Source: Rhizaria sp. SCN 62-66 (taxonomy: Eukaryota). Taken from it: 54,889 bases of DNA. Below, one piece after another: positions 1 through 32,409 of this stretch. Position 1 is the stretch's first letter. Every line of letters begins with the position of its first letter. The position numbers and the translations under genes are program-made. The notes below the pieces were generated by a model, which searched no databases, was not told the origin of the DNA, and worked only from the letters and a program-made list of their open reading frames with translations. The DNA lies in assembly GCA_001724265.1 (NCBI GenBank), contig MEDY01000096.1, positions 62,001-116,889 on the forward strand. The letters run 5' to 3'.

Positions 1-1
1 C

Positions 2-2553: not shown

Positions 2554-4090
2554 TTATACGTTAGTTAGGCTTAGTATGCATAACAAAACAACAAGCCACA
2601 CAAAAAAGGCATCTTTCGCGGTCGAAACAAGACAATCGAACAGGCGCGCTATTATGCGCTGCAGCTAAAGAGCGTCACCAGGGCTCGATTCCTCAGTGTG
2701 ACTCTGGACTGGCTAACAGACGAGCTCAAGCATGTCGAATCCGCCGACAAAAAGCTGTGCCACCTCGGGGCCGCGCGCAGCCAGGGAAGTCACCATCTGC
2801 GTCCACGGGATCAGAATCTCGCGGCTCCGGCTCGACTTGTCGCCAGTGCAAAAGAGCTCACAAATCCCCTCCACGCGCGTGTAAGTTAGAAGCTGCATGA
2901 TATCAGCATCGTTCGTAACGGCGAACCATTGCTGCAGTAGAGACAGAACAGAAGCCGGTCCCATGCGCCCCAAACCGTTGACATCACGGAGGTCCCCGAG
3001 CACAATATCGAACTCTGAGGAGCCAAGTGGGAAGTCAGCAATATCGTCACCACAAGTCTTAAAAACAGCAATTAATGCTTCATAAATAGTCTCGCGAGTC
3101 GGACCGTCGCTGCTTTGAGTTGATGTGTGGCGCAAAAGTAGGTCGCGAAGCAGATAAAGAAAGCCTGTGGTCGTGGTGGAAGGTACAGGCGTACCACTTG
3201 AGAATAACGAAACCACAACGCCACAAAACGTTTCCTGATAAAAAACAACACCATCGTCATCCTGCATCCTCTGACGCATGTATGTAAGCATGTGGTCAAG
3301 TGTCACATGCTTGACCGAGACTGCGAGCAGCGGCGACTTCGCAACAATGCGCACAAGACGAAGCAAGGGGACAGCCAAGTGGTGATTGGCGCCGTTGCGA
3401 GAGATCACTTGAGCAATGCGCTCGACATAGTTCACACAAGCAAGTGGGCTCATGTTCTGGGTAGTCGAACCATCACCAGTGGCGACAGAAGAGTTGGTTG
3501 TAGTTGTTGTGGAATTACTCAAGCGGTAATCTGCAAGAAGCGTCAGTACAAGGACAATACCGAGCATGTGCTACGATCCGTCTTCGGCGCAAGCAAGATC
3601 GAGCAGCTGCAACAGCGAATCAATTACCCCGCTTTCTGTGATAATCTGCACGCATTGTGTCTGTAAGTCAGCAGGGCATGCCAGCAGAGCGCAATAAAGC
3701 TTCATCACGCCGGCCGTGTGTGTCGAGAGCGACTGCACGCTCGCAACCGCAGTATGGACGCGCAGAATGCGGCCAAACTTCGGCAAAACACACTCGTTCA
3801 TCTTAAAACATTGACTACACAGTTGTACACATACCTGGTGTTCGTAGAGACGATACAGTAAGAAAGATTATGGGGGTGTCATGCGAGTCAAGGCTGCCTG
3901 GAGTCAGCCACAAAAATGACAGTGTAGATCATTATATACAAAAATCATGCTTTTCAATAGAGGATTCATATACATTTACACTGTAAAAATTTGAATTTAA
4001 CAATTAAATCTCGCTTGACGATGAAGCCGAAATAGACACTGACCTGAAAAATACCGCCCTCCTCCTTGTACTCCTCCGACGACACCACAC
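2554..4090 (-). CDS. Helical ARM/HEAT-like protein with three in-frame TAG codons (recoded gene or pseudogene); 5' end unresolved
   Basis: One frame runs from 3834 to TAA 2554-2556, interrupted only by TAG at 3571-3573, 2713-2715 and 2665-2667. It has amphipathic ARM-like segments (QIITESGVIDSLLQLL, LLRLVRIVAK, LQRIIARLFDCLV). A tentative upstream exon 4044-4090 (tag|...CAG|gtcagt) joins in frame through intron 3835-4043. Confidence 0.5.
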
Positions 4091-4100
4091 CTACACGATA

Positions 4101-4148
4101 GAGGATATTGTTTAAGAGGATAAGCTTATAGTTTAAGAGGATATTGTT
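4101..4148. repeat. Short degenerate tandem duplication (gaggata x3; gtttaagaggata x2) in AT-rich non-coding DNA
   Basis: gaggatattgtttaagaggataagcttatagtttaagaggatattgtt. Confidence 0.7.
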
Positions 4149-4433
4149 GATTGTATTAAGCGTGTATGGGTGATACGTACTTTGCACATACTAAACATTA
4201 TCGTACCATACAATCGATTATAACACAGTTGTGTAGTACAGTATATATAAAATATAGAGATAAGATGATTACAAATGTCGTTCTTCTTTGTTCTTCATAC
4301 AGGGACGAGTAGTTCTAAGTAACACAAATAATATTTTAGCGACTTGTGATCAAGTACAGTATAAACATATTGCCGGAGAGAACACAAATAAAGTCAACTG
4401 TAGCACTCTCAGCTCATAGTTAGCACCATGATC

Positions 4434-7400
4434 TCACGCCACGACGTCAACGAATTCGCGCGCCTCGCACCACGCCAGCGCGGCGTCGACAGTGGGCGCA
4501 ACAGCCACCGTGCCGGCAGACGCAGTTACGGGCTCGGAGCACTGCCGCGCCAACGCCAGCAGCGGGCCGGGCACCAGTCCTGCGAGCTCATCATTAATAT
4601 CGCAGTCATCAACGGTATTATGAGTCACGTCGCCGTTATCCAGAGGCGGGAGAACGCCGTTGTTGCGCAGCAGCGTGCTGACATCGGCGGGCATGTGCGC
4701 GAACACTACATCGACGCCGTAGCCGCGCGCAACGGCGGTGAGCGCGCGGAAGCACGCGCGCACGGCCGTCGCGTCCACGCCCAGCACGCGCGCAAAGTCG
4801 ATCACGACGGCCGCCGTGGGGCGCACCACGCGCGCGAGCGCAGGGACGAACACGGACGGTACGGCGTCCACGGCGCACGCGTGGGGGAGCGCGTGAGGGG
4901 ACGCGTAGTGCATGTGTGCCGCGGGAACTGTTGAGTTGGACGGCAGGAGCACAAGATCCACGCTGCCCGCGCGCTGCAACTGCGATGCCGACAGCGACTG
5001 CTGCTGTGACAGCAGCTGGGTCTGGGACTGAAGCAGCGCAGCGGAAGACGCATGACCGTGTCCGAGGTCCAGACCACGGCTGCTGCCGCTGCTGCCAGTC
5101 GTGCCAAAACGTGGCGCCGTTTGCGACAGCAAAGACCGCGCGCGGGCACCGGCGCTGTTGGGCGTCTGCGGCCGCGACCCCGCCTGACTGCCGCCGCCGC
5201 TGCCGCCGCCGCCGCCGCGACCGACACTGCTGCCGGCGGATCCCTGGGCGGCGGCGGGCAGTGGGGTGAAGGTGCGGTCCACGGCCGGCACTGTGGGCAC
5301 AGCGGCGACGAAGGCCGAGGATGACGCGTCACCGAAGTGTGTGTGTGGACGCGGCATCTCCACGCTAGGCAGCGCAACCACGAGGCCGGCGTTGTTGGCA
5401 TCAGCTCCAGCGTAGTCTTCGCTGTAGCTGTAGTCATGGGCGTCGGCGTCGCTGTTGGAATTACGGCTGTAGTGGTGATACGCGGCGACCGAGACCGCCT
5501 GCACGAGACCGACATGCGCGGTGCCAGGACTGCAAGTGACCGTGGGTGCCGCTGCCCCCGCGCCCGGAGCGACCGTGGGCAGCAACGCGTCCGCGGATCC
5601 GGTGGTACCAGTGACACCAGTGACTGTGGGCGCACCCAGAGCCGCGATGGAGTCGACAAGCAGACTCGGTGTGCGTCGCAGCGCGAGACCACCGCCGGTG
5701 ACGCTGGTGTTAAGCGCGGCGTTGCCACTGTTGGCGTTGCCGCTGTCGTTCGCGTTGTTCGCGACGCTGTAGCTGCGCACGCTCGACGCGGGCGAGCCGT
5801 CCGAAGCGGCGCCGTACCCGCTCGCAGCGCCGCAGCCGGTGGCCACGCCTGCGACCGCGGACGCGGCATCGAACACGACCGACTCGGCGCCGGAGCCCGA
5901 GCCAGAGTTGGCGTTAGAGCCGAACGACGACGACGGCAGCAACGCGGTCACAGGACCGCTCTCCTGCTCTGCACTCGCGCCAAGCGCAGCGCGAGGAGCG
6001 GCGACGGCGACGGGGGCGGTCGACGCAGGAATAGAGGTGGGCTTCACGTGCGTGGCACCCGCAGCGCCGCCACCGCCCCGCTGCGCGCGCCGGTGCTCCA
6101 AGTACTTCAGCGACGCCAGCGCAGCCCTGCCAGCCTTGACAGTGCTGTGCCCGCTGCCGCTGCTGCCGCTGTTGCTGTTGCGCTCGGACACAAGGACGTA
6201 AACATGCGCAAAGGCTTCCTCAAGCAGGATTTGCGCAGAGCCGAAAAAGACGTATCCGGAGAGCGAGAGCACGCAGGTTTGCCCCGCGCGCGCAGTGAGG
6301 CGCCGCGCGGCCGCCACGTCGCCGCTCGCGCTCGCACTCGCGCTGATGCTCGCGAGCGCATAGTTGTGACCGCCAGTTTGACTGACGCCGTTGGCCGCGA
6401 GCGCGCTGGCGGCGGTGGCGGCGCTGTTGGCGAGATGGTAGTTTGCGCTGCTGATGATCGCCGTCGCGGCGGACGAGTGCGGCCACGAGGGCGCCACTTG
6501 CGCGGACCGTGCGTATCCAACAACGAACTGCAGTGCGGCGACAGCGACGCCGACGAGGAGGCCCTGCTCGACGCCGAACACGAGCAGGGAGACGAAGGTA
6601 ATCAGCGACACGGCGTGCTCTTGCGCGGTGACCTTGCGCAGCGCGTAGACTTCGTAGAGCCACTCGAGCATGAGATCATAGGCGATGAAGATGAGTGTCG
6701 CGGCGAAAAAGAACCGCGGCAGCAGCGCCATGACGTCGACAGGCAACACAAAGACAGCTAACTCGGCCGCGGCAAGAATGCCGCCGACGAGGCGCGAGCG
6801 CGAGCCAGCGCGGCAGGTGAAGATGGTCTGCGAGAAGATGTAGCTGCCAGGGAAGCCAGCGAGCAGCCCGGAGACGGTGTTGGCCCAGCCGATGACCTCG
6901 AGCTCGGCGTTGACGTTAAGTGGGCGGCCCAAGTCGATCTCAACGGCCGCGACATCGAGGCAGGAAGAAAATGCCACGATCACGGTCATCGCCGCCCAGC
7001 GCGGGATTTGACTGGGCATCACATCCCAGCGCACGATGGAGAGATCGAACAAGGCCAGCACGTCGGTCACGGCGGCGGAGGCGGCGAGCGGGGACACCCA
7101 GCCGGCCGCGCGGGACTCGGCCAGGGACGTGCCTGTGATGTACAACAGCGTGAAGAAGAGCGCCGGAAGAAGCAGCATCGTCAGAGGCAGCGCCATAGGA
7201 TGCTTAAGCTTGCGCGCTACCACGCTCAAAATACCACCTTGAGATAACATAAAAACAAAAGAAGAAGAAGCAACACAGTCATGAAACATAAATAAATGGT
7301 GAATACATTTCAAACGGGACAATTTCTTCATGAATGGCTAAAAAAGAGAATATCACTAAGTCAATCCGTATCTTGTTTCTAGAGCGTACCTGACACGAGT

Positions 7401-9323: not shown

Positions 9324-10754
9324 TTAGAACTTGATGGGCTGCGCGGGCGGGGGGATGTTGAAGCTCTCGACGAGCTTGGCCGTGGCCTGGCCGACCTTCG
9401 TCGACAGCAGCGCCTTGTCGTCCTCCGAGAGCTCCTTGACAGGCGCCACGTTGGGGTCAAAGTCGGGGCGTTCGGCCTTGAGCTGCGCGACGGTGGCGTC
9501 GTAAAGCCGGTTGAGGTACACGGCGCGGTCGCGCTCGATGTCGATGGCGGCGTCCTTGGAGGCCTGCACAGCTTCGGCGTGGCCCTCGGGGGCAGTGGCG
9601 GCGTTGGGGTAGCTGTAGTGGGCCAGCGCAAGCTTGGCGGCCTCGTCCACGGCGGCCGCAATCGCCTTGCGCTCGTCGGGGGTGTTCTCGTTCATGAATT
9701 TGACGACGAGCTTCTGCTTAGGGGTGTTGAGGGCATCGACCCAGGCCTCGGCAGCGGCCTCCCAGTTGTCGCGGCGGTGGCCATCGCCGAACTTCCAGCC
9801 CTTGGGCGGGGGCACGTACGGCCAGCCCGCGTAGGGGATCGACGGGAACGGGCCCAGCTCGGCCATCGAGGGCACGCCGGCGGGCACGGGGTGAAAGACG
9901 AGGGTGCGCTTGACGTCGTCCTGAGGTGGGGAACATCACAGAAATGGAAGAGTAGAAGCACAAGATAAGAGCATATCACGACGAAATTGCACAAGGAAAT
10001 AAAGAAATCATGAATATACATATACGACACAGCATCGAGTGTGCTAGATACGCTGCAGGAGAGTGCTTGCCAATGTTGACAATTGGTCAGTGGCGTACCT
10101 GGCCAAAGAAGGGGTCGGAGGAATCGCGGGCGGCAGCGGCGGCGGCGTCCTTGTTGAAGTTCGCGGTGGGCTTGAACTCGTTGTTAACGACGTCGATCAG
10201 CTCGAGCTGGTCCTCGGCGACGGAGATGAGCTTCTCCAGAGGGCCCATGTTGATCTCGTACTCGGCGTCCCAGTCGCACGGGTTGCGCTCCAGCACAGCC
10301 AGGTGGTGGCGGGCCATGCCGATCACGGAGTTGTTGAAGTGCTTCTCACCCTATTGTGGCATGTACAAGACGGTATATGGTATCGGTGTGCAACGCGCGG
10401 TACGTGTGCAGTAGGATGGCGGGGCGTGGGACACGGTCGGCGAAGTCAGGGCAAGCGAGTGCAGCACCAGCGGACGAGAGGTGGGAGAGAGCCAATAAGT
10501 GGTTGGAAACAGGGTAAGACGAGGTCGTGCAAAGACAGCTGGAGAACAGTAAGCAGATTCAACGTTGACAAACCATTTGCATTTGGTTAGGTGAAATGAC
10601 GTACGGTGTAGGTGGAGCAAACCTCAATCTGACGCTTGTAGAGAGAGACCAACACCTCGCGAGCATTGTCGATGGCAGGGAGGTCCGCATAGCCAGTCGA
10701 ATAGCGACCAGGGCGCATCATAAGACGGCCGGCACAGCGCAACATTGATGACAT
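9324..10754 (-). CDS. NDUFA5: Mitochondrial complex I subunit NDUFA5/B13-like with a long C-terminal extension; 3 exons (10623-10754, 10099-10350, 9324-9920), ~326 aa
   Basis: Arg-rich presequence MSSMLRCAGRLMMRPGRY, then TGYADLPAIDNAREVLVSLY...EYEINMGPLEKLISVAEDQLEL, matching the NDUFA5 pattern (TGL.GL...L..LY...E..I..GQ.EE.I..AE.EL). Two phase-0 GT-AG introns, strong codon bias, TAA stop. Confidence 0.75.
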
Positions 10755-11286: not shown

Positions 11287-11869
11287 ATGCAACCATCAAC
11301 CATGTATCGCCCCAGCTTAATGCTGTCTTCGCGTCTCCGCACTGGCTCCTCGCGTCTTGCGCGAGCTACGTCGTCGTTTCTGTCATACATTTCGACCAGC
11401 AGCATCAGCGCCCACAACACCCGTCCTGCTGTCACTGCTTTTCCCTCTGCTGCTTTCTCGACGGCGTCTGCTCCCAAGGCGCGCGTGCTTGAGCCGGCTG
11501 CCGAGCTCTTCACGCTGCTGCCGCAGGAAGACCCCGCGCTGATGGGGAAGCACGCCGTCAAGTCGCAGGCCGCGCGCGAGAAGGAGGAGGCCGAGCTGGA
11601 CGCGCTCGAGGCCGAGGCCGACGCCAACGCGGTCGCCCCGGGCCCCCGGGTCAACCCTGTCACCGGGGAGGTCAACGGGCCGCGCGGGCCTGAGCCCACC
11701 AGGTACGGTGGCCGAGATTTTTATGCTTGTTTTGTTTGTCAACGCTGGCTTCATTATTTTACACTGTTCTTCATGTGACGTGACTCACTCTTGCTGTGCT
11801 GCTTGTTATTCTTCATGTTTGCGTAGGTTTGGCGACTTTGAGCGCGCGGGCCGCTGCTTTGACTTCTGA
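11287..11869 (+). CDS. SDHAF4: Succinate dehydrogenase assembly factor 4 (Sdh8/DUF1674); 2 exons (start 11287 or 11302 to 11702; 11827-11869)
   Basis: Splicing intron 11703-11826 (AG|gtacgg...cgtag|G) gives the family signature [31 protein letters not shown]. The N-terminus is Ser/Arg-rich like a mitochondrial presequence. Stop is TGA. Confidence 0.92.
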
Positions 11870-12684
11870 AGTTGCATAGCGGTGCGTTTTGTGCATCTAT
11901 TTATTTATTTTCACGACTGCTCTGCATTCGTTTGCCGCTGTGAGCGCTGAAGGATTGCTGCGGGCCAGTCTCTAAAGCAAGCTCTTTGCGGATATATTAC
12001 ATAGCTCTGTGAAATATAAACGATACAATACGATAATTTCCCCTACCAGGTTTCTGAAAATACGCGCATAAATTCCCCTCAACACTGTCACGATCACTGT
12101 GGTCAGCATCTTAATCAGATTTCGTCCTCGTAGACCGAGGGCGAGCGAGGTTTCGGATGGACCGACAAAATCGAAGTCTGGTGGGAGCTGGGCTTGCTTT
12201 CGACAGTTAAAGCGGTGTTTTTCGAACCACAGACAGTGCATGAAACAACTTTACATCTACAAAACCACTTTTTATATATTGGCTATTGATTGTAGGTCTA
12301 CTGTCGACGGGAAACATCTCATTTGCCTTGTGATAAATCTTTCTTACTCCAACCCACACGCGACCACTCTCCACTCACATTTGTCTTTCGTCAACCTCTT
12401 ATCTTGCACTTTCATGACTTATCAAGACTCTTTAGCTGGATCAACTGCCGTTTTCTATAGAAACAAACTGCTCTTGTTTCTACTACTGCGCTACAGCGCC
12501 ATATATATCCCCTCAACTCTTCAGCTCCGAAAGTAGAGTTGATCTCTTCTCCCGCTTGCTTGCATTTGGCAACTGACGCCAGTCTCCCCCCACTCAGCGT
12601 CGCCTGTTCACCTCGTCGCTCCTTTCCGACGATCATCCCTGGCCTAGCGCCTCCCAGTGTCTTTGCGCCCCGCTTGTCCTCGCA

Positions 12685-15600
12685 ATGAGCGCGCCCGGAG
12701 CATCCGCAGCAGCCGTTGCTGCTGGTTCAGCGTCCCCAAGTAAGCCCCCGACTTCGCGCGTGGTGTTCCACGCCAGCTCCGCCAACGCTTCCTTCTCTGC
12801 CGCCGCGCCTTTTTCTGCCGCACCGTCGACCTCCGCGCCGCCGCCGCCGCAGCAGCCGCAGCCGCGCGCGACCAACATCAGCACCAGCGCGCCCACTACC
12901 GCGGCCGCGTCTTCCTTCTCCGCGACCGCTATCTCGGCCGCCTTCTCGGCCTCTCTCGCCAAGATGCCCTCCGAGGCGGCTCAGCTTGCGTTCTGGCAGA
13001 AGTATCTCGACAGCACGGACGCGCAGCAGGACGCGCTCGCGGCGTCGCCCGCCTTCATCGCGCACGTCTGGGGCGGCGTCCCCGAGCCTCTCCGCGCGCG
13101 CGTGTGGCAGCAAGTGCGCGGCGTGCCCCCCACGCAGTACACCGTCGACGACGCGCGCTTGCCCGCATCTTTTATTGCGGACCTCGACGCCGAGATCATG
13201 TGCGCACAGGCGTGTCCTGCCCTGCCCGAGCCCATCGCGGACCAGGAGCAGGAGCTCGTTCGCACCGTGCTCAAGATCGACGCGGGCGTCTTCGCGCGCA
13301 CCGCGCCGCCGCCGGGCTCGGTCCAGCTGCTGCAGCGCATCTCCCCCGTTACCAAGACCGTGTCGGCGACGCTCTATGTGCACCAGGCGCTAGCGCACCG
13401 CATGGCGCGTTTGCGGCCAACGCCGGCTCGCCCCGCCACGGCCGGCGCCAACGCCGCGGGCTCCGCGACAGGCTCCGCCGCCGGTGTTGCTGGTAATGCT
13501 GCTGGCGCTGGCGCTGGTGCGAGTTCTGCGGGTGCCGGTGCTGCGGGCGGCGGGTCGCAGCCCAGCGGCGGCAACGTGGCTTCCCGCAACAGCAACAACA
13601 GCAGCTCCAGTAGCAGCAGTGCGTCGTCGTCCTGCTTTGGCTCTGCGACCGGCTCCGCCAAGGACTCCGCCGCGACCAGCGCTGCGATCTCTGCCAGTTC
13701 TGCCAGCTCCGCGGTGCGCCAGGCAGGCGGCATTCCTGAGTGTGCGCTGGCACTGGCGGACGCCGTGGCCACGTGGGACCCCGCGCTCGCGGCGCGCATG
13801 CAGCGGGCGGGGCTCGACGCGCACGACCTTCACACGCTCACGCGCGAGTGGGCGCTGCCGCTCTTTGCCTCGGCGTACCCGGCGCCCGTTGTGCTGCGCG
13901 CTCTCGACATCGCGCTGCTCGACCCGCGCGGCCCGCACGCCGTCTCGCTGCTGCTGTACGGACTGCTCAAGCTCGTCGAGGCAACCTCACCCGCGGTCGC
14001 TGCGGCGTCATTGTCGTCGTCGCCTGCGGCGGCCAAGGTGGTGGCGGGCGCGGACGGCGGCGCGGGTAATAACCCCGAGGCTGAGAGCAAGACTGACTCC
14101 GCCTCTGCCGCCTCCGCTGCTGCTGCTGCTGCCGCCGCTGCGAGCGCGGCCGGCGCCGGCGCGGGCTTAGTCTCCGGCGCGAGCTTCCCCGGCGACGGCT
14201 CTGCCGCGGCGAGCCCCGAGGCCACGCGAAGTGCCTCGAGCGCATCCAATGCAAACTCTGTGTCTGAGCCGTCGCTGCTGTCGCACGCGCTCGTGCTCCC
14301 GTCGCGCCTGCTCGCGCTCTCGGCCTCGGACGCGGCCGCGGCGGCGACTGCGGCCGTCGCCGTGACCTTCGCCACGCTGCGTTCGCGCGACCGCGAGTGG
14401 TGGGCGATGCTGCTGCGCAAGGACTGGACGACCACGCTCGCGCGCTCGGGCCCCGCGCTGTTAACCGTCGTCCCAGGGGTCGGGTCCGCAGTCGCCGCGC
14501 CCGCGGAGACGCCCGCGCAGCGCGAGGCGCGGCTCGTGGGGCAGATCGCGTACCTGCAGCGACTTATCGTTGCCTTCATGCGCGCGCGCCGGGCTGCCGC
14601 GGAGGAAAAGGCCCGCGCTCTCGCACAGGTATGTCAACTCTACTAAATGCGAGATATATCCAATTATATAAGCGCTATTGGAAGAGTTCTTTAATCTATT
14701 TGTTTTCTAACCTATTGTATATCCACATATCATCAATTTATATTAAATCGTACTTTTCTTCATGTATTCATGTTCATTATTCTTTAGGCCGAGGCCGAGG
14801 CCGAGTCGCGCAAGGCGATGCGGCGCCTCGTCGCACTGGCGGCCGAGCACACGCCCGCTGCGCGCGACCTGGTCGAGACCATGGAGCGCCTTGGTGCACA
14901 GCTCGCTGAGATCGAACGCGAAGTCTTCAACAACGCCCACCATAACACCAGTCACAGCTCAAGCTCGAGCTCGAGCTCGAGCAGCTCCACGGCGTCGAGC
15001 GCGTCTAGTACCTCTGGGTCAGGCGTTCTGGGCGTCTCCGCGGCCCTGTCGGACGCATTCGCGGCGACGCGTGCGCTGTTTGACCGCCTGCAAACGTCGC
15101 TGGGCAGCGCGCTCGTCGCCGACACACCGGTCAACGGCGCCGGGCTGTTCGCCAAGTTCGACATCACGCCGGCCGGCGCGGGCGCGGACGCGGGCGGGCT
15201 GAACCCCGACGGCACGCCTAATACTGCCGGTGCAGGGACCGGCGCGAACGAGCTGGCCGGCAGCTTCGGGCTCGGGCTTGGCGGCGGCAGGCCTGTGTTC
15301 CTCAAGTCGCCGCCGCCGACGGGGCTGATTAAGTTCGGCGAGCTGGCGTCATACCTGGAGCTGCCGTGCGCGCACATGGAGGGCTACCTCCGCAAGGCGC
15401 GCATGCCCAAGCCCGGACAGGACATCACGGTCGTCGCGCGGCGGTACTTCGTGCTCTACGGCCCGTTCCTGACGCACTTCAAAACCCACTCAGACCGCAC
15501 GCCGAGTAAGAACATTGCCGTCGACCTGCGCGGGCGCACCATCGCGATGATTGACCGCCACCCGCTGGGCGAGTTCGGCATCGAGGTGTGCACGCGCAAG

Positions 15601-15696
15601 CAGACGACGCTGTATTTGCTGTTTGCGGATAGCGAGATGGAGCGGCGTAAGTGGGTCATGACCATCGCCGCTGTCGCGCGCCTGCCCCCCGGCTGA
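12685..15696 (+). CDS. Degenerate TBC (Rab-GAP) domain + coiled coil + C-terminal PH domain protein; 2 exons (12685-14628, 14788-15696), ~950 aa
   Basis: TBC motifs GVPEPLRARVWQ and WDPALAARM...EWALPLFASAYPAPVVLRALD; PH motifs EGYLRK...RRYFVL...LFADSEMERRKWV. Phase-0 intron 14629-14787 (CAG|gtatgt...tttag|GCC). Stop is TGA. Confidence 0.8.
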
Positions 15697-23445: not shown

Positions 23446-26400
23446 TTACTGCTGAGGGAAGGCAAACATGCGACCAAGCACGTCCACCGTTCCTGCCACA
23501 GCGGCCGCCGTCGCCTCGCTGGCGGCAGCGGCTGCCTGAGTCTCAGCATCAGCGGCGGGGACACCGCGCTTCTGCCTCTGCTTCTGCTGCTGCCGCTGCT
23601 CGCGCAAGAGCCGCGCCACGGCCACGTGCAGCGCGCTCGCCACGTCCGGCGCCGCCGCAAAGACTGGCTTTGGAGGGCTGATTTGATCGGCAGCGTCGGT
23701 GTCCGCGACGGTGTCAAACGCCGAGCCCGCGCGCCGCAGGGCGCCGATCACGCCGCTGTCGGCACTGCCGCTGCCGGCGTTGGCGGTCGAGGAGTCGGAG
23801 AGGACGAAGCTCTCGCCGTAGTTGCCATGCGCCGCGCTCAGAAGAATGGACTCGGCGACGGGGACGGAGACGGGGCTTTCGAGGGCCTCGTTATCGCCCT
23901 TCTTGTCCGCGTTGTTGTCAGCATCACGACTCTGGTGGTGCACTTCGCTCTGATGCTGAGTCGTGGAGGTCTCAATAGTGACCCCAAGAGTCGGCCCGCG
24001 CTGGCCCTCCTTCGCCTCGGCTTCGGCGCGCTCGGCCGCGTGGGCCCTGGGCGCAGCCTTGTCCTGCACCAGCACAAGCACGGGTCGGGTGACCGTAATC
24101 CGCGACGTGCCCAACGGGGCGGCGGCTGCCGCATCCGCAGCAGCACCAGCAGCAGCGAGCTTTACATCGCGAGGCTGGCTCACGCGGCCGACGGCCACGT
24201 CAGCCTCAGCTTCGATCTTCGTCTTCACAGCAGCCTCGGCCTCGGCCTGAGCCTCCGCCTCGACGGTCCGCGCCGCGCGGCGGATCCACCGCGCCAGCTG
24301 CGCCCGCCTGCGCGCGGCGGCGCGGCCCGCGGCGGCGACTACGACGAGCGCGCGCGGCAGCGTGACCATACAGTCTGCATTCGCACTCGCACTCAAACTC
24401 GCACTGGCGCTGAGCGCCGACTCACTCTCAGCGCCGTCAGCAGAGTCACTGCCGGTCGTGCCGAGCAGGGCTGCCAGCGGGAGCGCGTACGACACAGCGG
24501 CGCTGCCACCGCGGTCGCTAGGCACGGTCATCTGCAGCATCACGTGGGCCGGCTCAATCAGCGTCGTGTTCTCATCGTCTTCCACAACAGCGTCACCGAT
24601 GTTCCCACCCGCACCGCCGGGGGACGGCAGAGTGCTGGGCGCGGGGGCGTCGCTGGTGAGCGAGTCCGATAGCGCAATCCATAGTGAAGGGACGGGGGGC
24701 GCGGCGGCGAGGTGCGCCGCGAGCCAGAGCAGCGAGGCCGGGGACACGAGGTTGAGCGCGGCAACTGGCAACTCAGACAGAGGCACAACGGGCACGGGCG
24801 CATTTCCAGCAAGAGCATTACCGGCAATATGCGCGTCCTTGTCGTTGATGTCCTTGCGGTGGCTATGGCTCTTGCTGCTGCCGCTGCCGATCTTGGGCAT
24901 GAACGCACGCCCGTGAACCTTGGCCGCACCTTCACGGCCGTCACTGCCGTTATCACCATCCTCGTTCTCATCCTCTTCCGCGATGCGCCGCGCGCAGCCC
25001 TCGCCCTCCAGATCCGCGCCCTCTGCGTCCTCCCGCTCGCTCTCCGCGGTGCGTGCCACGGTCACCGCGGCGGACCCCAGTGAGACGCTGGCGCGCGCAG
25101 AGTCCGTTATGACCGTGAGCGCCACAGCAGCAGACTGTGGCTGCGACACTGACTGTGAGCCGGTGAGTTCGGTCGCGGAAAGGCCGCGGAGACCCAGCCC
25201 GGCGGCGACGGCGACCATGGTCGACCACACGCTGTCCACGGTCACCACGTCGCCCTTGACGCCGGCGCCACTGCCGTTCGAGTCACGCGCAGCGGCGTTG
25301 GCGCGCGCCTGCGCCCACGCGCTGGCGACCAGCGCCCACAGCGCCAGCCCGCTTGCGGCGCGATTGCTCGGAGCGCTATTGCTGTTGCTGCCCTCAACGC
25401 TGGCGAGAGACGTGGGCGGCGCGGGCAAGCGGGCGAGCACGTCGCGCGCCACCGTGCGCAGCTGGGGCAGCGGCGGCGGCAGCGCCAAGCTCGCGGCCAC
25501 GCCAGCGCTTGCAGCCGCAGCAGCAGCGGCGGCAGCGGCGGAGGAGGGCTTCTTGTTGCTGTTGCTACTGTTGCTGTTGCCGTTCGCGGAGGCCGAGTGC
25601 AATGCGAGCTGGCTGCCTGCGTGGCGCGTGGAGGCCACGGCCGCGGCCTCGAGTGCAACCCACAACAGCACGAGCAGCGCGGCGGCGTGGCGGGACGCGG
25701 CGAGCGCATAGTCCCACGCAGACAGCAGCGAGAGCAGCGGGCACACAGCCGCATCACCAGCAGACGCGGCATCAGCAGGGTTCGAGCAGGAGTTGGCCTG
25801 CTTCGCGGCTTTGGCGAGCTGCGAGCGGACACGCGTGAGCACGAGCGCCTCTGTGAGCGCGGACTCGCTCAGCATCACCGCGTCGTCGTCGTCGCCGGTG
25901 TTGGCGCTGTCTGTCTTTGATGCCGCCGGGCCTGCGCCGCCGCGCTTAGCGAAGAGGTCGGCGGCCTCGCGTTCCAGCGCCGCGGCGGCCGCAAGCAACG
26001 CGCTCGGCTGCGCCGCCGTGGCGCGCACCCACGCCGCGCAGTGCGCGCGCAGCGCCGGCAGCGCGGCGGCGACGGCGGTGGCCGCCGCCGCGGGCTGCGT
26101 CCCGGTGCCAGCAAGGCTCGACTTGAAAGAGAGGCTGTGCGGCACGGTGAGAGTGGTGATGCGCGGGTTCGGCAGCAGGCCCGTGAGCAGCGCCGCGGTG
26201 GGCACCATGCGCGCCATCAACACGGGCGCAGCACAGTGAGAGATCAGGCCCGAGCTTTTCACGACTGCGCTGGCGTTCGCGGCTGTGTTGACGCCAGCGT
26301 TATAGGGCACCGCAGGAGCAACTGAGGAAATAGCTGCGATCGAGCGCATGACAATCTCCTCAGCGCTGCAGCCCTCACGCACGCGGGCCTGCAGCGCGCC

Positions 26401-29400
26401 GCGAGAGCTCACAGTCGGGCTGCTGCTGCTGCGGCCGAGGCCGAGGGAGCCGTTGACGTCGCCGCGCTGTGCCGGCGCGAGGAAGACGTCGAAACAGACG
26501 TCGAGGTGCGAAGGCAGCACCGGCGCTGCGGGGGCCGCCGACGGAGGCAGCAGCCACAGCGAACGCGCGGGCACGAGCACCGCGCTCGCGCTGTCTCCCG
26601 AAGCAGCCGCGGCAGCCAGGGGCTGTGGAGTGAGTGCAGACGGCACGAGCCGCGGCAGCAGCAGCGCGCGCGACGGACGCGCTCCCTCGAGCAACCGTGA
26701 GCTGGTCTCGAGTGACCGTGAGCCAGCGGCTGCGAGTGACCGTGGGCGGCTCGAGTCCGGACCGAGCGTCATGATGTCGTGCGCAGCCGGGGACAGATCC
26801 TGGAGCGCGCGTCGCAGCCGAATCCACAACCCTGCCGCCAGAGCAACAGCAGCAGCAGCACTCTGCGTGGACTGTTGACCGCCGCTGCGCTCCGCAGCAA
26901 CCCTGCTGCGCAGCGCGGCGGCGTCGCTGAGCGCCTGCGCGGCGTCGGCAAGCCTGCGCGGCTTAGTGGTCACGCCGACCCACTCAAGCGGAAAGCCGTC
27001 GCGCTGGGCCTCGGCATCGAGCGCGCCGCGCCGCTGCGGGTCGCGCGCCTCCGGCAGCCGCTGCAGCAGCGCCAGCGCCTCGGGGGCAGTCGCGCGCTGC
27101 CGCGGGTGCGGGTGCAGGCACGCCTCGAGCAGCGCGTTGACGCCCGCGCTGAGACCAGCGAACGGGCACCAGCGCAGACGCCAGCGGCCGCCGGCGACGC
27201 CGCTGTGACCGCTGGCATTGCTGTTGCTGCCGGTGCTGTCGTTGTGCAGCCAGTAGCCGCCGAGCGCGAGCGCGCGACGCCAGAAAGCGGCCCGCACGCG
27301 CGCGCGCCGCGACTTCCCCTGCACCTGTCCATGGCCGGTGTACGCCGCATTCGAGTCTGCGGAGACAAGAGCGAGCTCTTCGGCGACTGCGGCGCAACAG
27401 AGGCGCATCGTCTGCTCCGGCGTCAGCGCACACACGCTCACACCGACCGGGATGCCGCAGTCCGTGAGCGCCACGGCCTCATGCGTGGCGGCGTCGACCG
27501 CGGCCAGAGCAACGCGCGGCGCCGCGGAGTAGCTATGTCCGGTGATCAGCTCAAGCAGCGAGACGCCGGCGCTGTATACGTCGCAGCCAGCTGCGGCCGT
27601 GGCCGCGGCCGCCGCCGCGGCCACCGCGCGCGCGTGCACGGCGACAGCGCTCGCCGCGGACTTGGGGGCAGCCGCGGACACAAGCGCGCGCCAACGCGGC
27701 GGGCCGCCATCTTCCTCCACGGCCGCGGTCTGCAGCGCGCGGTCCAGCGCGCCCCACGCGCTTTCGAGGACCGCGGGACCGTCGTCCGCAGGCAACGCCT
27801 CACCGGTCATCGCAACAGCAACGGCGACGCGAGAGCATGCGGCGTGCTGTTGCTGCCGCTGCTGCCGTGCGGGCGCCGAGGACAAGAGCAGGTTCGCAAG
27901 GGGCTGAGCACAGGCGCGCACGGGCGCCAGCCAGCCGTGCAGGTCGTTATAAGCGAGCCCCAGCTCAGGGGCCGCGTAGGCCTTGGAGACAGCGGGCGCT
28001 AGCGCGGCGCCGGCCCCCGCGGCGGCAGCGCGCACGGCCTCTAGCACGCGGGCGCGGGCCGCAGCGGCGGGCTCGTAGGCAAGCGCGGCGGCCGACGCGG
28101 CGGCGCGCGCGGGCTCCAGCGCCGCGGCGAGCGCGGGCAGCGGCAGCGCGGAGCCCGGGTCCGTCAGCCGCGCGCACGCGCCCGAGAGTGGCCGGCGCGG
28201 CCGCGAGCCCCCCGCGGTGGGTGCTGAGGTGGGGAACATCAGCCCGCCAGCGCTGGAGATCTCGGCAGCGAGCGCAAGCGCCCTGACAGCGTCGCCGTGC
28301 TCATTCACACTCGAGCCTTCAGTGGTCTTCTTGGTCACGAGCAGGCTCGGCGGCGGCAGCAGCAGCGCCTCGGCGGCCTCCGCAGGCAGCACAGCCCCGG
28401 GCCCCGTGTAGCTCACCGTTGCAGTGCCCTCGCCGCCGCCGCCGTAGCCGCCGCCGCCGTGTCCGCCGGTGAGCGCGGCGGCAGCGGCGTGCTGCGCGGC
28501 GCACGCGCTGAAGAGGTCCGGCACACGGTCCAGCAGCGCGTTCGCGGGCTTGACGTCGAGGTGCGCAACGCCCGCGCAATGCAGCGCGCAAAGTGCGCTG
28601 AGCATCTGCTGCAGCGCGTGGGCCGCGGCGCGCTCGGACAGAGGGCTCATCGCGCCCGCCGCGGCCGCCAGCGCCACGCGCCGCTGCACCGCGCCACCAG
28701 CCTCAGACGTAGAGGCAGCGGCCGCGTTAACAGAAGCGGAGTCGAGCTGGAAGAGGAGAGCGAGGCGGATGTCGGCGAGCGCGCGCGCGGCGCGCAACAC
28801 GCGCGCGAGGTCCGTCGGTGCCCACTCGCCAATTACGCACAGCATCGGCTTCGCAGCACGCGCGTCGGCGCTCTGGTTGTCGCCGTGAGGCGTTGCGGCG
28901 CGGCGGAGGCCCGTGGTGACGGCGGCAACGGTGATCGCGAGTCCCGGGTGGGGAAGCGCGAGTAGGTCGCCGGCGGGCGGGAGAGGCGGGAGCGGCGGGG
29001 GGCCGTCAGCATCACGTTCCGCGCTCGCGCTCGCGGGCGGCGGCGCCATAGCGAACTTGGCGCCACAGACCTCGTCCAGCTCGCTCAACGCGGGCTTGGC
29101 CGCGGACAGCAACGCGGGGATGTCGCTGAAGTCAGCAGACGCAGCGGCTGACGCGGCGGAAGCTGATGCGGAAAGCGCGCGTTTACTGCCACGCGCGAGC
29201 CAAGGCAACGCAAGGCGCGGCAACGGCGCGGGCGCGGCCAGCAGGGGCTTGCCGCAGCGCAGGCCGAACTCGACCTCACGCGAAAGCGCAGCCAGGTCGA
29301 GCAGCGCGCTGCAGTGCGCAGAGCCGCCGCCGGCGCCGTCGCTGCCGCAGGACTCGTCGTCGTCGCTGCCGAAGGCGTTGGCGTCCGTGTCCGAATCGGA

Positions 29401-30840
29401 GCAAGAGCGCGCGTGGGTGTCGGCGTCGGCGGCGTCAGCGTCGTCGTCATCGTCGTCGTCGTCGTCGTTGCTCGACCACGTGTCGTCGCTTTCGTCACTG
29501 CAACCGGCAAGGCTGGCACTGCTGCTGCCGCGGTGGCCGACAGCGCGGGCATGGCTGTGACGCAGAGTGCTATGATTCGTCAGCACAGACTGGTCGAGGC
29601 CGGCCGGGATAGTGCGAATGGCGTCGATGTCAATGACGGTACTGTTCTCGGCGCTGGCTGTGGCTGTCACAGCAGCAGCAGCGGTCGCAACAGAAGTGGC
29701 GCGGCGGTAACAGCGCCAGCGCGGCTTCCGTGCAGTCGCGATAGAAAAGGGCGCATCTGCATTAGCGGCGTCCAGCTCATCGCGCAAACTCGAGCGCACA
29801 CCGCTGATGCCGTTGCCGCTACAGTTGCTGCGGCGATTGCGATTGTTGCTGTTAATGTTGCGACGCGGCTGTCCCTGCGGCGACTGCGCGAGCGGCACGA
29901 GCTTAACTGCGAGCAGCGCCGCCGACAGCGGCGCGCCCCGCTGCGCCGCCGGCAGCGACGCGCTCAGCAGCGCGGCGCGTTGCGCGGGCGACAGGTGCAG
30001 CGCCCGGTGCGCGACGGCAGGCAGCGGCTGCGTCGGATACGCCACGGGCCCCGCGACGCCGCCGCAGTCGCACTCGCCCTCGGTGCAGTCGCGGCAGCCC
30101 GCGGGGCTCGCGCTGGCGCGAACGGTGGCGTTGGCGTTGAGGTCCGGGAGAGCGTGCGAGAGAACGGTCGGGTTGTAGGCAAGTACGCGCGCAGCGTGGA
30201 CGCGGCCGAATGCGCCGCGGCCGAGCGGACGCAGCAGCTCAAGCTCTAGCGCAGCACCCCCAAAGCTGATCTCGCCACACCTGCGAGAAGTCTCCCCGCT
30301 CACCCCAGCTGTAGCGCTGGCGCAGAAGTTAAGCCGCATCGCCGCGAGTCCAACGGGAACAGTGCGGCCACGCGCGCGCTCAAGAAAAGCGCTAGTCGCG
30401 CCTCCAACATCACCCCCATTGCCGTGTGGAAGCCGTGGCACGCTGCTGCCGCGACTGAATACGATCTTCCCGTGCATGCAGAGCGCTAAGTACGCGTACA
30501 GCATAGTGCGCGCGCGCAGGCGGGCCTGGTCAAGCCGTCCGCCGGCCAGAGCAAGAAGTGTCGCACTCGTGGCCATCACCGCGGGTGAGGCGCTTGATAG
30601 TGGTGGCGGCAGCGCGCTTAGCTCGAGCTCGGCAGCGGCCCACGCCTCGGACGCCAAGAGCGGCGACGCAGACGCCACTGAGAGAGAAGACGGGGATGAG
30701 GAAGAACTCGACTGTGAGGGGACGAGCTCGAGGCGTGCCGCGGCCGTGACCGTGAGCGGGACAGGCGCGGGGCCGACCTCGGTTCCGATCATCGGCAGAG
30801 GAAGATTGTAGTTGGCGCCGATGCCGAGCGCGGCGACATT
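23446..30840 (-). CDS. Large Ala-rich protein with a second, heavily interrupted kinase domain (continues the upstream kinase ORF)
   Basis: Kinase motifs appear in order: LGRGAFGRV, LAVK, HPGL, GEWAPTDL, HLDVKPANALL, LTDPG, KAYAAPEL, DVYSAGVSLLELITG, LLEACLHPHPRQRATA. The frame is open from 30840 to TAA 23446-23448. Confidence 0.8.
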   Translation of the reverse strand, partial: NVAALGIGANYNLPLPMIGTEVGPAPVPLTVTAAARLELVPSQSSSSSSPSSLSVASASPLLASEAWAAAELELSALPPPLSSASPAVMATSATLLALAGGRLDQARLRARTMLYAYLALCMHGKIVFSRGSSVPRLPHGNGGDVGGATSAFLERARGRTVPVGLAAMRLNFCASATAGVSGETSRRCGEISFGGAALELELLRPLGRGAFGRVHAARVLAYNPTVLSHALPDLNANATVRASASPAGCRDCTEGECDCGGVAGPVAYPTQPLPAVAHRALHLSPAQRAALLSASLPAAQRGAPLSAALLAVKLVPLAQSPQGQPRRNINSNNRNRRSNCSGNGISGVRSSLRDELDAANADAPFSIATARKPRWRCYRRATSVATAAAAVTATASAENSTVIDIDAIRTIPAGLDQSVLTNHSTLRHSHARAVGHRGSSSASLAGCSDESDDTWSSNDDDDDDDDDADAADADTHARSCSDSDTDANAFGSDDDESCGSDGAGGGSAHCSALLDLAALSREVEFGLRCGKPLLAAPAPLPRLALPWLARGSKRALSASASAASAAASADFSDIPALLSAAKPALSELDEVCGAKFAMAPPPASASAERDADGPPPLPPLPPAGDLLALPHPGLAITVAAVTTGLRRAATPHGDNQSADARAAKPMLCVIGEWAPTDLARVLRAARALADIRLALLFQLDSASVNAAAASTSEAGGAVQRRVALAAAAGAMSPLSERAAAHALQQMLSALCALHCAGVAHLDVKPANALLDRVPDLFSACAAQHAAAAALTGGHGGGGYGGGGEGTATVSYTGPGAVLPAEAAEALLLPPPSLLVTKKTTEGSSVNEHGDAVRALALAAEISSAGGLMFPTSAPTAGGSRPRRPLSGACARLTDPGSALPLPALAAALEPARAAASAAALAYEPAAAARARVLEAVRAAAAGAGAALAPAVSKAYAAPELGLAYNDLHGWLAPVRACAQPLANLLLSSAPARQQRQQQHAACSRVAVAVAMTGEALPADDGPAVLESAWGALDRALQTAAVEEDGGPPRWRALVSAAAPKSAASAVAVHARAVAAAAAAATAAAGCDVYSAGVSLLELITGHSYSAAPRVALAAVDAATHEAVALTDCGIPVGVSVCALTPEQTMRLCCAAVAEELALVSADSNAAYTGHGQVQGKSRRARVRAAFWRRALALGGYWLHNDSTGSNSNASGHSGVAGGRWRLRWCPFAGLSAGVNALLEACLHPHPRQRATAPEALALLQRLPEARDPQRRGALDAEAQRDGFPLEWVGVTTKPRRLADAAQALSDAAALRSRVAAERSGGQQSTQSAAAAVALAAGLWIRLRRALQDLSPAAHDIMTLGPDSSRPRSLAAAGSRSLETSSRLLEGARPSRALLLPRLVPSALTPQPLAAAAASGDSASAVLVPARSLWLLPPSAAPAAPVLPSHLDVCFDVFLAPAQRGDVNGSLGLGRSSSSPTVSSRGALQARVREGCSAEEIVMRSIAAISSVAPAVPYNAGVNTAANASAVVKSSGLISHCAAPVLMARMVPTAALLTGLLPNPRITTLTVPHSLSFKSSLAGTGTQPAAAATAVAAALPALRAHCAAWVRATAAQPSALLAAAAALEREAADLFAKRGGAGPAASKTDSANTGDDDDAVMLSESALTEALVLTRVRSQLAKAAKQANSCSNPADAASAGDAAVCPLLSLLSAWDYALAASRHAAALLVLLWVALEAAAVASTRHAGSQLALHSASANGNSNSSNSNKKPSSAAAAAAAAAASAGVAASLALPPPLPQLRTVARDVLARLPAPPTSLASVEGSNSNSAPSNRAASGLALWALVASAWAQARANAAARDSNGSGAGVKGDVVTVDSVWSTMVAVAAGLGLRGLSATELTGSQSVSQPQSAAVALTVITDSARASVSLGSAAVTVARTAESEREDAEGADLEGEGCARRIAEEDENEDGDNGSDGREGAAKVHGRAFMPKIGSGSSKSHSHRKDINDKDAHIAGNALAGNAPVPVVPLSELPVAALNLVSPASLLWLAAHLAAAPPVPSLWIALSDSLTSDAPAPSTLPSPGGAGGNIGDAVVEDDENTTLIEPAHVMLQMTVPSDRGGSAAVSYALPLAALLGTTGSDSADGAESESALSASASLSASANADCMVTLPRALVVVAAAGRAAARRRAQLARWIRRAARTVEAEAQAEAEAAVKTKIEAEADVAVGRVSQPRDVKLAAAGAAADAAAAAPLGTSRITVTRPVLVLVQDKAAPRAHAAERAEAEAKEGQRGPTLGVTIETSTTQHQSEVHHQSRDADNNADKKGDNEALESPVSVPVAESILLSAAHGNYGESFVLSDSSTANAGSGSADSGVIGALRRAGSAFDTVADTDAADQISPPKPVFAAAPDVASALHVAVARLLREQRQQQKQRQKRGVPAADAETQAAAAASEATAAAVAGTVDVLGRMFAFPQQ

Positions 30841-32409
30841 CTAGGCGCGCTCTTTCGCGATGAGGTCAGCGATGATGAGCGCGAGATCACGATCGAGCCC
30901 GTCTGCGCGCAGCACCGCGGCCATCCCGGCCGCGGCGCATAGTGCAGCGACGTCAGAACGCACCTCAGCAGCACACAGCTCACTGGCGCGGACGCTGTCT
31001 GCATTGGCGCTGATGGCGCTGGCGTGGCGGCGGTCCGCGTCCCGCTTGCGTGCAGCTTTGCGTGCATCAGTCGCGCGCAAAGTGAGCGTGTGCTTATACA
31101 TACGCGCGGCCTGAGGCTTGATCGGGCGCAGCGGCAGCGGCGGCGGCGGCAACGGGCGCAGCTGCATCCAGCCCTCTTTGGTCCGCGGCTCTGCACGGTC
31201 GGCGGCCGCGATGGCCGCCGCGTCCGCGTCGTCCGAGTACGTCGGCGCAAAGAACGGGTGGCGCAGCGCGTCTTTGAGGCTGGGTCGGTGCGCGGAGACG
31301 CGGTGGGTCAGCCGGTCGTACAGGTCCGCGGCCGCGGCCGAGACGCCGGTGCAGATGTCTCCAGGGCGGCGGCGCTTCGTGTCGTCGCCGCGCAGCTCCA
31401 TGAGGTGGGCCTGGTCGCGCGCCTTGTCAATGTCACCGGAGCCGAAGGGCTCGAAGCCGGTGAGGAGGTGAAACATGGCGACGCCGACCGAGTAGACGTC
31501 GTGCACGTCGCCGAGCTTCGCCTGGTCGCGCAGCAACTCATCCGACATCATCAGCGGGGAGCCGACGCGCGTGTGCTTGACGGACCGGTTGCGCAGCAGG
31601 TCCGCCTGGCGCGAGAGACCGAAGTCGGCGATCTTAGCGATGGCGCCCCGCAGCGGCTGCGACTCGTCCCCGCCGTCGCCGTCATCGCCTTCGCCGCTAT
31701 TACCAGTGTTGTTGCTGCCGCTGCTGGGGCGCGGGTCGCGGTCGAGCAGAATGTTGGCGAGCTTGACGTCGCGGTGCAGAATCCCGCGCTCACACGCGCA
31801 CACGAGGCCCTCCATGACCTGGCGCAGCACCCAGCGGAGCTCGCGTTCCGTGACACACGGCGCGCGCAACGCACCAGAAGCGCCAGAAACACCAGAAGAG
31901 CCGCGCGCCACAGCGCCCGCGCCTGGCTCGATGAGGCGAGTTAGCGTGAACGGCGCGAACTCGCAGACTATGTAAAGCGCGCCGTTGTGCGTGAAGGCCG
32001 CGTCGGCGCGCATGACGTTCGGGTGCCGCAGCTGCATCAGGTTGCTGACCTCGCGCGCGAGCTGCAGAAACGGCATGGGCTCTTGCGCGCCACCCTTCTT
32101 GCCGTTCTTGTCGGCGACCTTCGTCCCGTCCCGCGCGTTGGTTACTTGCTTGAGCGCAATGGGCCGCAGGGTCGGGCCCGCGTACGCCGCGGAGACGACG
32201 CCAAACGTGCCTCGGCCAAGCTCGCGGCCCATGAACACAGACGTGGGCACAAGCGCGGGTGGCAGTGCTGTGATGATAACGTCGCCATGCGAGCCGAACG
32301 CGTAGACGGGCACTTCTTCGTGTCGGAGTTCACTTGGGGTGTCTTGCTGGGCGTCACGCCAGCCCTTCATGAACTGCTCCACGAAGCTCAGCGGCGTGGA
32401 CGCGGACAT
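30841..32409 (-). CDS. Ser/Thr protein kinase domain (N-terminal part of a probable ~2987-aa tandem kinase spanning 23446-32409)
   Basis: GRGTFG, IALK, HPNV, HRDVKLAN, IADFGL, GSPLMMSDE, DVYSVG, HPFF. It ends at TAG 30841-30843, which is in frame with the next ORF. Confidence 0.88.
   Translation of the reverse strand: MSASTPLSFVEQFMKGWRDAQQDTPSELRHEEVPVYAFGSHGDVIITALPPALVPTSVFMGRELGRGTFGVVSAAYAGPTLRPIALKQVTNARDGTKVADKNGKKGGAQEPMPFLQLAREVSNLMQLRHPNVMRADAAFTHNGALYIVCEFAPFTLTRLIEPGAGAVARGSSGVSGASGALRAPCVTERELRWVLRQVMEGLVCACERGILHRDVKLANILLDRDPRPSSGSNNTGNSGEGDDGDGGDESQPLRGAIAKIADFGLSRQADLLRNRSVKHTRVGSPLMMSDELLRDQAKLGDVHDVYSVGVAMFHLLTGFEPFGSGDIDKARDQAHLMELRGDDTKRRRPGDICTGVSAAAADLYDRLTHRVSAHRPSLKDALRHPFFAPTYSDDADAAAIAAADRAEPRTKEGWMQLRPLPPPPLPLRPIKPQAARMYKHTLTLRATDARKAARKRDADRRHASAISANADSVRASELCAAEVRSDVAALCAAAGMAAVLRADGLDRDLALIIADLIAKERA

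Follow-up and report, generated by a model that had tools for sequence, protein, structure and literature searches.

The 54,889-base stretch of DNA analysed here, from contig MEDY01000096.1 and referred to as the window (no N in its sequence), raises the question whether UAG is translated as a sense codon in the organism to which it belongs. The question comes from two genes on the minus strand, one encoding an armadillo-repeat (ARM-repeat) protein and the other a giant protein with kinase domains, as three in-frame TAG codons (TAG1, TAG2 and TAG3) are located in the former and one in the latter. A reassignment of UAG only was proposed for the window in an original prediction made from the sequence alone. 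The analysis puts the probability that UAG is translated as a sense codon in this organism at about one half. The TAGs are real in the DNA, those of the ARM-repeat gene are kept in RNA contigs, and they stand in coding sequence which continues in frame.

The four minus-strand TAGs were found exactly where the prediction had placed them (3571, 2713, 2665 and 30841), and its statement that neither frame contains an internal TAA, TGA or frameshift was upheld. The coordinates of the genes and of the codons are given in Table 1. The letters at the TAGs of the ARM-repeat gene were compared with assembled contigs, not raw reads, of the runs X3 (2017), X4 (2025), X5 (2025) and X8 (2025) over the window positions 1-20000. 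These four runs come from three studies other than the likely source of the window, and the comparison covered the TAGs of the ARM-repeat gene. No other letter was present at any of the three sites in the four runs. The X3 contig 2053-4106 spanned all three TAGs with 0 differences, the X4 contig 2505-3421 spanned TAG2 and TAG3 with 0 differences, and the polyA-RNA contig 3382-3651 of X8 spanned TAG1, also with 0 differences. The complementary DNA (cDNA) contigs of X5 covered TAG1 (3453-3827) as well as TAG2 and TAG3 (2390-2966) in unchanged, colinear and gapless form. X5 and X8 hold real RNA of the organism, because both contain the spliced joint 9919>10098, and the cover of X5 is not genomic DNA, since its depth is zero over several exonic and intergenic bins. 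At the level of these contigs, UAG is kept in the ARM-repeat mRNA and is not spliced out or edited, and rare spliced or edited forms may exist. The RNA contigs covering these TAGs revealed neither the editing that the prediction had listed as an alternative nor the splicing out that it had named as a refutation.

The support for the kinase TAG is indirect compared with that for the TAGs of the ARM-repeat gene. A metagenome scan returned the same locus once (contig L001), together with two unrelated kinases. The contig L001 matches the window positions 26656-34221 with 0 mismatches in 7566 bp and retains the kinase TAG. The 522-aa open reading frame (ORF) ending at the kinase TAG was present in 5 contigs of three source collections, the 2448-aa ORF after it in 3 contigs, and the fragments of the ARM-repeat gene bounded by TAGs in 6 contigs each; these contigs were not counted as independent because they may be re-assemblies of shared data. 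No uninterrupted version of the ARM-repeat gene or the kinase gene was found in the length ranges searched.

The continuation of coding across the TAGs was analysed for the read-through product of the ARM-repeat gene. Distant homologues were identified by an exhaustive HMMER search in five clusters (P0004-P0008), all from metagenome assemblies, with an identity of 28-35% and with alignments covering the query residues 15-345 and 15-392. The 76 residues upstream of TAG1 alone scored 18.5 bits against an N-terminal profile (three homologue sequences from two clusters), which was reached by 0 of 500 shuffles, the best of them scoring 8.0. The residues after TAG3 alone scored 8.6 bits against the family profile at the colinear place (0 of 500 shuffles, best 5.1), and the segment running from TAG2 to the C-terminus, in which TAG3 was set to X, scored 11.1 bits, again reached by 0 of 500 shuffles. 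The 15 residues between TAG2 and TAG3 gave no homology signal alone, as 117 of 500 shuffles did equally well. The AlphaFold model of the 415-residue product is a single all-helical solenoid with a mean predicted local distance difference test score (pLDDT) of 71.4 and a predicted template modelling score (pTM) of 0.71, and the TAG positions are at or in its helices. Foldseek matched this model to the ARM domains of importin-alpha and beta-catenin with template modelling (TM) scores of 0.56-0.62 over ~400 columns and E-values of 1e-3 to 1e-2. The coding of the ARM-repeat gene runs through the TAGs because homology is present on both sides of TAG1 and after TAG3 and the solenoid model is coherent.

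According to the model, the gene encodes an armadillo-repeat protein at the fold level. The earlier label "ARM-like" holds by fold and does not hold by Pfam, which gave no Arm match and no family at E<=0.1. The gene is lineage-specific, fast-evolving and weakly codon-biased, and a six-frame profile search of 1900-4400 revealed no further exons. The family to which it belongs (proteins P0004-P0012) is known only from metagenome assemblies; its long members (923-945 aa) have an extra C-terminal region, and several members begin only partway into the N-terminal domain, which looks as though an intron or a stop interrupted their genes.

In the giant kinase gene, the Pfam family Pkinase matched before the TAG with an E-value of 5.6e-36 and after it with 6e-10. 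The sequence motifs HRD and DFG suggest that the kinase domain before the TAG is active, and a second kinase-like stretch appears after it. The frame remains open for 2464 codons after the TAG with a G+C content at third codon positions (GC3) of ~0.8, and visual inspection of the letters indicates that the GC-rich coding composition extends in frame to either side, with no AT-rich spacer like those of the inspected intergenic stretches. The first ATG downstream of the TAG is 17 codons away. A word-based protein search with the kinase region gave no homologue beyond fragments of the window itself. All four TAGs are inside coding sequence, with the caveat that a 57-nt intron candidate lies over TAG2 and TAG3.

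The stop codon usage of the window was tallied from 12 definable gene ends, both TAG-bearing genes included. As the window reads, these comprise 8 TAA, 4 TGA and 0 TAG, and the tally becomes 9 TAA and 3 TGA if a coiled-coil gene is read in its restored frame. The claim of the prediction that genes never end in TAG is borne out by the 12 ends, while its count of the ends was in error over a TAA at 14644, which is not a gene end because it lies inside the 159-nt intron 14629-14787. The chance of finding 0 of 12 TAG ends is ~0.03-0.07 if TAG normally ends 20-25% of genes, and 0.14-0.28 if it ends 10-15%.

The combination of four stops, no indel in either gene and no TAG at 12 gene ends is stronger evidence than the exclusive occurrence of TAG among the internal stops. 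The probability of a nonsense change given a substitution is 0.03 in the ARM-repeat gene, and three hits imply ~100 neutral substitutions in 1245 nt. At an assumed indel-to-substitution ratio of 0.05-0.1, four disabling lesions would all be TAG substitutions with a probability of ~0.001-0.006. Among 14,602 counted codons, the C-terminal exon of the NPR2 gene being left out, TAG occurs 4 times (3 in the ARM-repeat gene and 1 in the kinase gene), ATA 6 times (3, 2 and 1 elsewhere) and TTA 20 times, 4 of them in the ARM-repeat gene, to which the weak codon bias (GC3 0.56) is confined. This distribution of TAG fits that of the rarest sense codons. The prediction had also remarked that two giant ORFs are free of internal TAG, which would make it a rare codon, and the 3802-codon cyclase-phosphodiesterase (cyclase-PDE) gene and the 2800-codon SPRY gene were indeed found to lack it.

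If the codon is reassigned, which is the favoured reading, UAG would specify an amino acid, with UAA and UGA as terminators, and it would be rare and strongly avoided, in the manner of ATA and TTA, being used mainly in the weakly biased ARM-repeat gene. By precedent, such decoding would involve a CUA-anticodon tRNA, or a near-cognate one, along with an eRF1 that has lost the recognition of UAG. Glutamine is the commonest precedent for the meaning of UAG but is not a result of this analysis. Internal in-frame UAG, the absence of UAG from gene ends and its retention in RNA (for the ARM-repeat gene) were all observed, and the organism is a well-founded candidate, not filed as a member, of the class with reassigned UAG. 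It is possible, with the odds somewhat against it, that the reassignment is at an early stage in a deep-branching, GC-rich lineage, where UAG has gone as a terminator and barely reappears as sense, hardly any genes tolerating it so far except those with weak expression and weak codon bias, as in a "codon capture" phase.

The window was compared with known systems. In the rhizarian exLh, UAG encodes Leu: 71 genes contain 384 of these codons in frame, placed at conserved Leu columns, termination is by UAA in 56 cases and by UGA in 15, and ribosomal protein genes use UAG least (PMC5304391). In Iotanema spirale, UAG encodes Gln (Panek et al. 2017, PMC5304391). As in both, the codon found in frame is UAG only, never UAA or UGA. 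The window further resembles exLh in that UAA as the majority and UGA terminate (56/15 in exLh and 8-9/3-4 here) and in that UAG is scarcer in strongly biased genes; it differs in having 4 UAGs, in 2 of 12 genes and in unconserved columns, in a GC-rich genome with a coding GC3 of 0.7-0.9. McGowan et al. 2024 (PMC11687900) described phyllopharyngean ciliates in which UAG means Leu, as in three TARA metagenome-assembled genomes, or Gln, as in Hartmannula and Trochilia. The likeness to these consists in the origin from metagenome assemblies, UAA as the preferred stop and UAG alone being affected. In our judgement, a multi-gene GC-rich contig with introns of 123-254 nt is unlike a ciliate macronuclear genome. 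The ambiguous codes of Condylostoma, karyorelict ciliates and Blastocrithidia share with the window a standard stop codon that is sense inside genes, but there, as far as these accounts go, the codon also terminates genes, whereas 0 of 12 genes end in TAG here.

Several observations weigh against the translation of UAG as a sense codon. The 12 gene ends are a small sample. UAG is present in only 2 of 12 genes and in none of the Pfam-recognisable conserved parts, so widespread use across many genes, conserved ones included, was not found, and ~11,000 codons of the three giant ORFs are without UAG. The CAA/CAG counts are 63/392, and a neutral synonym of CAG would predict dozens of UAGs instead of 4. 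The use of UAG is one to two orders of magnitude below that of the compared UAG-sense organisms, as given in the parts of their reports considered (PMC5304391, PMC11687900). Internal UAGs occur in 78-91% of the genes under known UAG-only codes, and suppressor tRNA genes were identified in the phyllopharyngean ciliates (PMC11687900); here, 2 of 12 genes contain UAG and the window has no tRNA. A search of the window gave 0 tRNA genes, 0 Rfam matches and no eRF1 gene. The three alignable TAG sites fall in the unconserved columns L/A/Q, I/S/A/P and A/E/K/R, which name no amino acid, and the proposed reading of UAG as Gln found no support in them. Random nonsense substitutions, calculated from the codon content of the genes themselves, would be TAG in 54-63% of cases in the ARM-repeat gene and in 65-68% in the kinase gene; due to these shares, 4 of 4 TAG has a P of ~0.10-0.17, and the exclusive occurrence of TAG is weak evidence. 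The coiled-coil gene, indel-broken or misassembled in the window, shows that this contig is not free of disabling variants or local assembly faults. The finding was also selected out of a large number of windows, a choice that makes coincidences more likely. The low use of UAG might stem from a GC-rich genome or from a young reassignment.

Among the rival explanations, the standard code with fixed premature stops is unlikely, with a chance that has to be taken seriously. By this account the ARM-repeat gene is dead and the kinase is cut to its first 522 residues, the two being young pseudogenes or truncated alleles. The CAG-rich codon usage that makes TAG the commonest nonsense outcome in both genes agrees with it, as does the use of UAG far below that of any described UAG-sense organism. 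The ARM-repeat gene, being lineage-specific, fast-evolving and weakly biased, would be apt to carry such alleles, the first kinase domain with its HRD and DFG motifs could work alone, and the window shows a frameshift in a further, third gene of the contig. It is opposed by the ~100 implied neutral substitutions in the ARM-repeat gene, which left no indel, TAA or TGA, by the 2464 open codons past the kinase TAG that keep their coding composition, and by the ARM-repeat mRNA in two RNA data sets. Nonsense alleles would moreover require 2 of 12 genes to be dead in a compact genome, and they leave TAG at 0 of 12 gene ends to coincidence. An improbable account is that UAG is still a weak stop, with programmed or context-dependent read-through or a dual stop and sense meaning giving truncated and full-length products. 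A cytosine at the position following the stop (+4) is the leakiest stop context in eukaryotes, and C follows 3 of the 4 in-frame TAGs but 2 of the 12 genuine stops, of which 8 are followed by a purine. The few sites suit regulated read-through better than a free sense codon, and ambiguous stop/sense codes are known from the accounts considered above. An isolated UAG in an open frame followed by C at 3 of the 4 sites is the likeness to programmed read-through. Typical programmed read-through extends the C-terminus past a single stop, unlike the three sites in the short ARM-repeat gene and the one inside the 2987-codon kinase gene. Unless each were efficient, the combined yield of three such events in a gene of 415 codons would be very low, and the lack of a TAG terminator at 12 gene ends gives no sign of a retained stop role.

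Splicing could explain a part of the TAGs and could be combined with any other account, leaving TAG1 and the kinase TAG to be explained. Here TAG2 and TAG3 would be lost with a 57-nt in-frame intron (2665..2721, minus strand) that has GTCTGT at 2721 and TTTAG at 2665; this is rather doubtful, a little more so than leaky termination. The 159-nt intron at 14629 has the same hexamer, GTCTGT, as its 5' splice site, 4 of 7 defined introns end in TAG, the removal preserves the frame, and the 15 residues between the two TAGs lack a homology signal of their own. However, the length is less than half that of the smallest of the seven defined introns (123-254 nt), the cDNA contig 2390-2966 of X5 is gapless there, and the joint is absent among the 15 of 98 joints listed. 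The homologues carry a segment of 11-19 residues at the corresponding place, and chance alone is estimated to place ~0.1-0.15 hexamers of this kind at codon boundaries over a span of 60 nt. The explanation by sequencing or assembly errors, or by RNA edited back to sense, has a negligible probability; what is left of the probability goes to combined or unforeseen causes. The window is a metagenome assembly with one probable local fault near 19395, and beyond this nothing was found in favour of it. The CAG>TAG errors considered in the prediction are excluded by the identical letters in the contigs of four other runs from three studies for the ARM-repeat gene and in the second metagenome contig for the kinase TAG, and editing is opposed by the RNA contigs, which keep T at the sites covered in the ARM-repeat gene.

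Other gene models around the TAGs were tried and rejected. A 57-nt intron ending at TAG1, with GTAATT at 3627, removes residues that align well to the homologues, and the polyA contig of X8 is colinear there. A 44-nt intron starting from a GT that overlaps TAG1 breaks the frame and runs into a TAA. An in-frame 123-nt "intron" ending at the kinase TAG (30963..30841) is GC-rich with coding-like third positions by eye and so differs from the introns of the window. A split of the kinase into two genes separated by 48 nt was rejected as there is no break in composition, the inspected intergenic stretches are AT-rich and the gaps between neighbouring genes are ~300 nt or more. The ORF 12072-12536, which ends in TAG, was rejected as a gene on account of its low GC and junk translation.

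The meanings of UAA and UAG can be uncoupled, as UAG-only reassignments demonstrate; the reports compared here describe such codes in a rhizarian, a fornicate and phyllopharyngean ciliates, with frequent use of UAG in the rhizarian and the ciliates (PMC5304391, PMC11687900). If UAG is a sense codon in this organism, its code would be a UAG-only code with the unusual feature of very sparse UAG in a GC-rich genome, possibly due to an early reassignment. It would then make visible the spread of a reassigned codon once it has been captured, which genes are affected first and how the termination signals adjust. If the TAGs are nonsense alleles instead, the finding is ordinary. No description of UAG reassignment in a eukaryote of wastewater or activated sludge was found in a limited literature collection. 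The proteins of the organism in public collections were called with the standard code, and both TAG-bearing genes appear there as fragments (P0001, P0002, P0003 and P0014).

The stretch of the window was found in public metagenome and metatranscriptome runs of bioreactors, wastewater and activated sludge (six studies, 2015 to 2025), and the source is an uncultured eukaryote because the stretch occurs in such environmental runs. The organism thus recurs in public wastewater data sets of both kinds over a decade. Word-based searches of the protein collections with the ARM-repeat gene, the kinase region and an exon of the NPR2 gene gave no close relatives, all matches being ORF fragments of the window itself. 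In the Atlas, the nearest clusters are scattered over many phyla and point to no lineage, and no match was found among genome contigs by protein or by exact 33-mer. Both strands of the window carry genes, very long ORFs of 3802, 2800 and 2464 codons are present, and across the window the coding sequence is GC-rich (GC3 0.7-0.9) and the spacers are AT-rich.

Table 1. Coordinates of the TAG-bearing genes, their TAG codons, the definable gene ends and the introns predicted from sequence and homology in the window
Feature	Position	Strand	Details
ARM-repeat gene	2554..3801	-	ATG 3801 to TAA 2556-2554; 415 codons if TAG is read; GC3 0.56; three in-frame TAGs
TAG1	3573-3571	-	codon 77 of the ARM-repeat gene
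TAG2	2715-2713	-	codon 363 of the ARM-repeat gene; between the core match and the match after TAG3; in helix 356-371 of the model
TAG3	2667-2665	-	codon 379 of the ARM-repeat gene
Giant kinase gene	23446..32409	-	ATG 32409 to TAA 23448-23446; 2987 codons if TAG is read; GC3 0.81
Kinase TAG	30843-30841	-	codon 523; GC-rich coding context, no intergenic spacer
Gene end TAA	1880..1882	+	5'-open gene 2..1882
Gene end TAA	2556-2554	-	ARM-repeat gene
Gene end TGA	4434..4436	-	SulP transporter
Gene end TAA	9324..9326	-	three-exon gene 10754..9324; introns RNA-confirmed
Gene end TGA	11867..11869	+	DUF1674/SDHAF4-family gene
Gene end TGA	15694..15696	+	gene 12577..15696 with PH domain
Gene end TAA	16010..16012	-	NPR2/NPRL2-like gene
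Gene end	19257..19296	-	coiled-coil gene; TGA 19296-19294 in the window frame, TAA 19259-19257 in the restored frame
Gene end TAA	23124..23126	+	RING-finger gene
Gene end TAA	23448-23446	-	kinase gene
Gene end TAA	33455..33457	-	cyclase-PDE gene; 3802 codons, no internal TAG
Gene end TAA	54433..54435	+	SPRY gene; 2800 codons, no internal TAG
Intron	11703-11825	+	123 nt; DUF1674/SDHAF4-family gene; predicted
Intron	14629-14787	+	159 nt; GTCTGT...TTTAG; in-frame; joins ORF 12577-14628 to the PH-domain exon starting at 14788; predicted
Intron	~7389..7246	-	SulP gene; predicted
Intron	~18268..18078	-	NPR2/NPRL2-like gene; predicted
Intron	near ~20153	-	~134 nt; after the signal-peptide exon of the coiled-coil gene; predicted

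Spliceosomal introns, which the original prediction had overlooked, are present in the window. Two introns on the minus strand, 10604..10351 (254 nt) and 10098..9921 (178 nt), both of the form GTACG...YAG, were proven by a spliced cDNA contig of the run X5, and the joint of one of them (9919>10098) is also present in the polyA run X8. Five further introns are predicted from sequence and homology (Table 1). The lengths of the seven defined introns fall in a narrow band, and most of the introns are AT- or pyrimidine-rich. The 5' splice sites are unusually uniform, with GTACG in 4 of 7 and GTCTGT, GTCCGT and GTACTT in the other three. The uniform splice sites together with the narrow range of intron lengths might help to place the organism. 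The genome is intron-poor, GC-rich and eukaryotic.

The introns also affected the models of neighbouring genes. The ORFs within 12577-15696 on the plus strand look like two genes and are one gene, of which the second exon carries the PH domain. In the DUF1674/SDHAF4-family gene (11290-11869, plus strand), the conserved C-terminal motif of the family is completed only by splicing; from this gene, the organism probably has an aerobic mitochondrion and complex II. The three-exon gene (9324-10754, minus strand) has 336 codons, no Pfam family and the best RNA support in the window positions 1-20000.

The secreted coiled-coil gene (19257-20237, minus strand) consists of a signal-peptide exon, an intron of ~134 nt and a Lys/Glu-rich exon. 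It is frameshifted in the window near 19395-19410, and an X3 contig with a 14-nt insertion behind 19395 restores the frame; in one RNA contig of X8 the TGA of the window reads CGA. The gene in the window is probably broken by an indel or misassembled, with a local fault near 19395. The differences between runs within its codons are synonymous third-position changes in 15 of 17 cases, which points to a second copy or strain of the gene under purifying selection.

The stretches of GCG/GCT triplet repeats at ~10130-10147, 13317-13520 and 16302-16322 are GC-rich and draw partly matching contigs of other organisms in all compared runs, resulting in dozens of false joints and loose ends. The gene at 33455-44863 on the minus strand is intronless and encodes, over its 3802 codons, an adenylate/guanylate cyclase domain at residues 83-271 and a cyclic-nucleotide phosphodiesterase domain from about residue 3150 (E 9e-73). 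Such a gene would unite the synthesis and the breakdown of a cyclic nucleotide in one giant protein.

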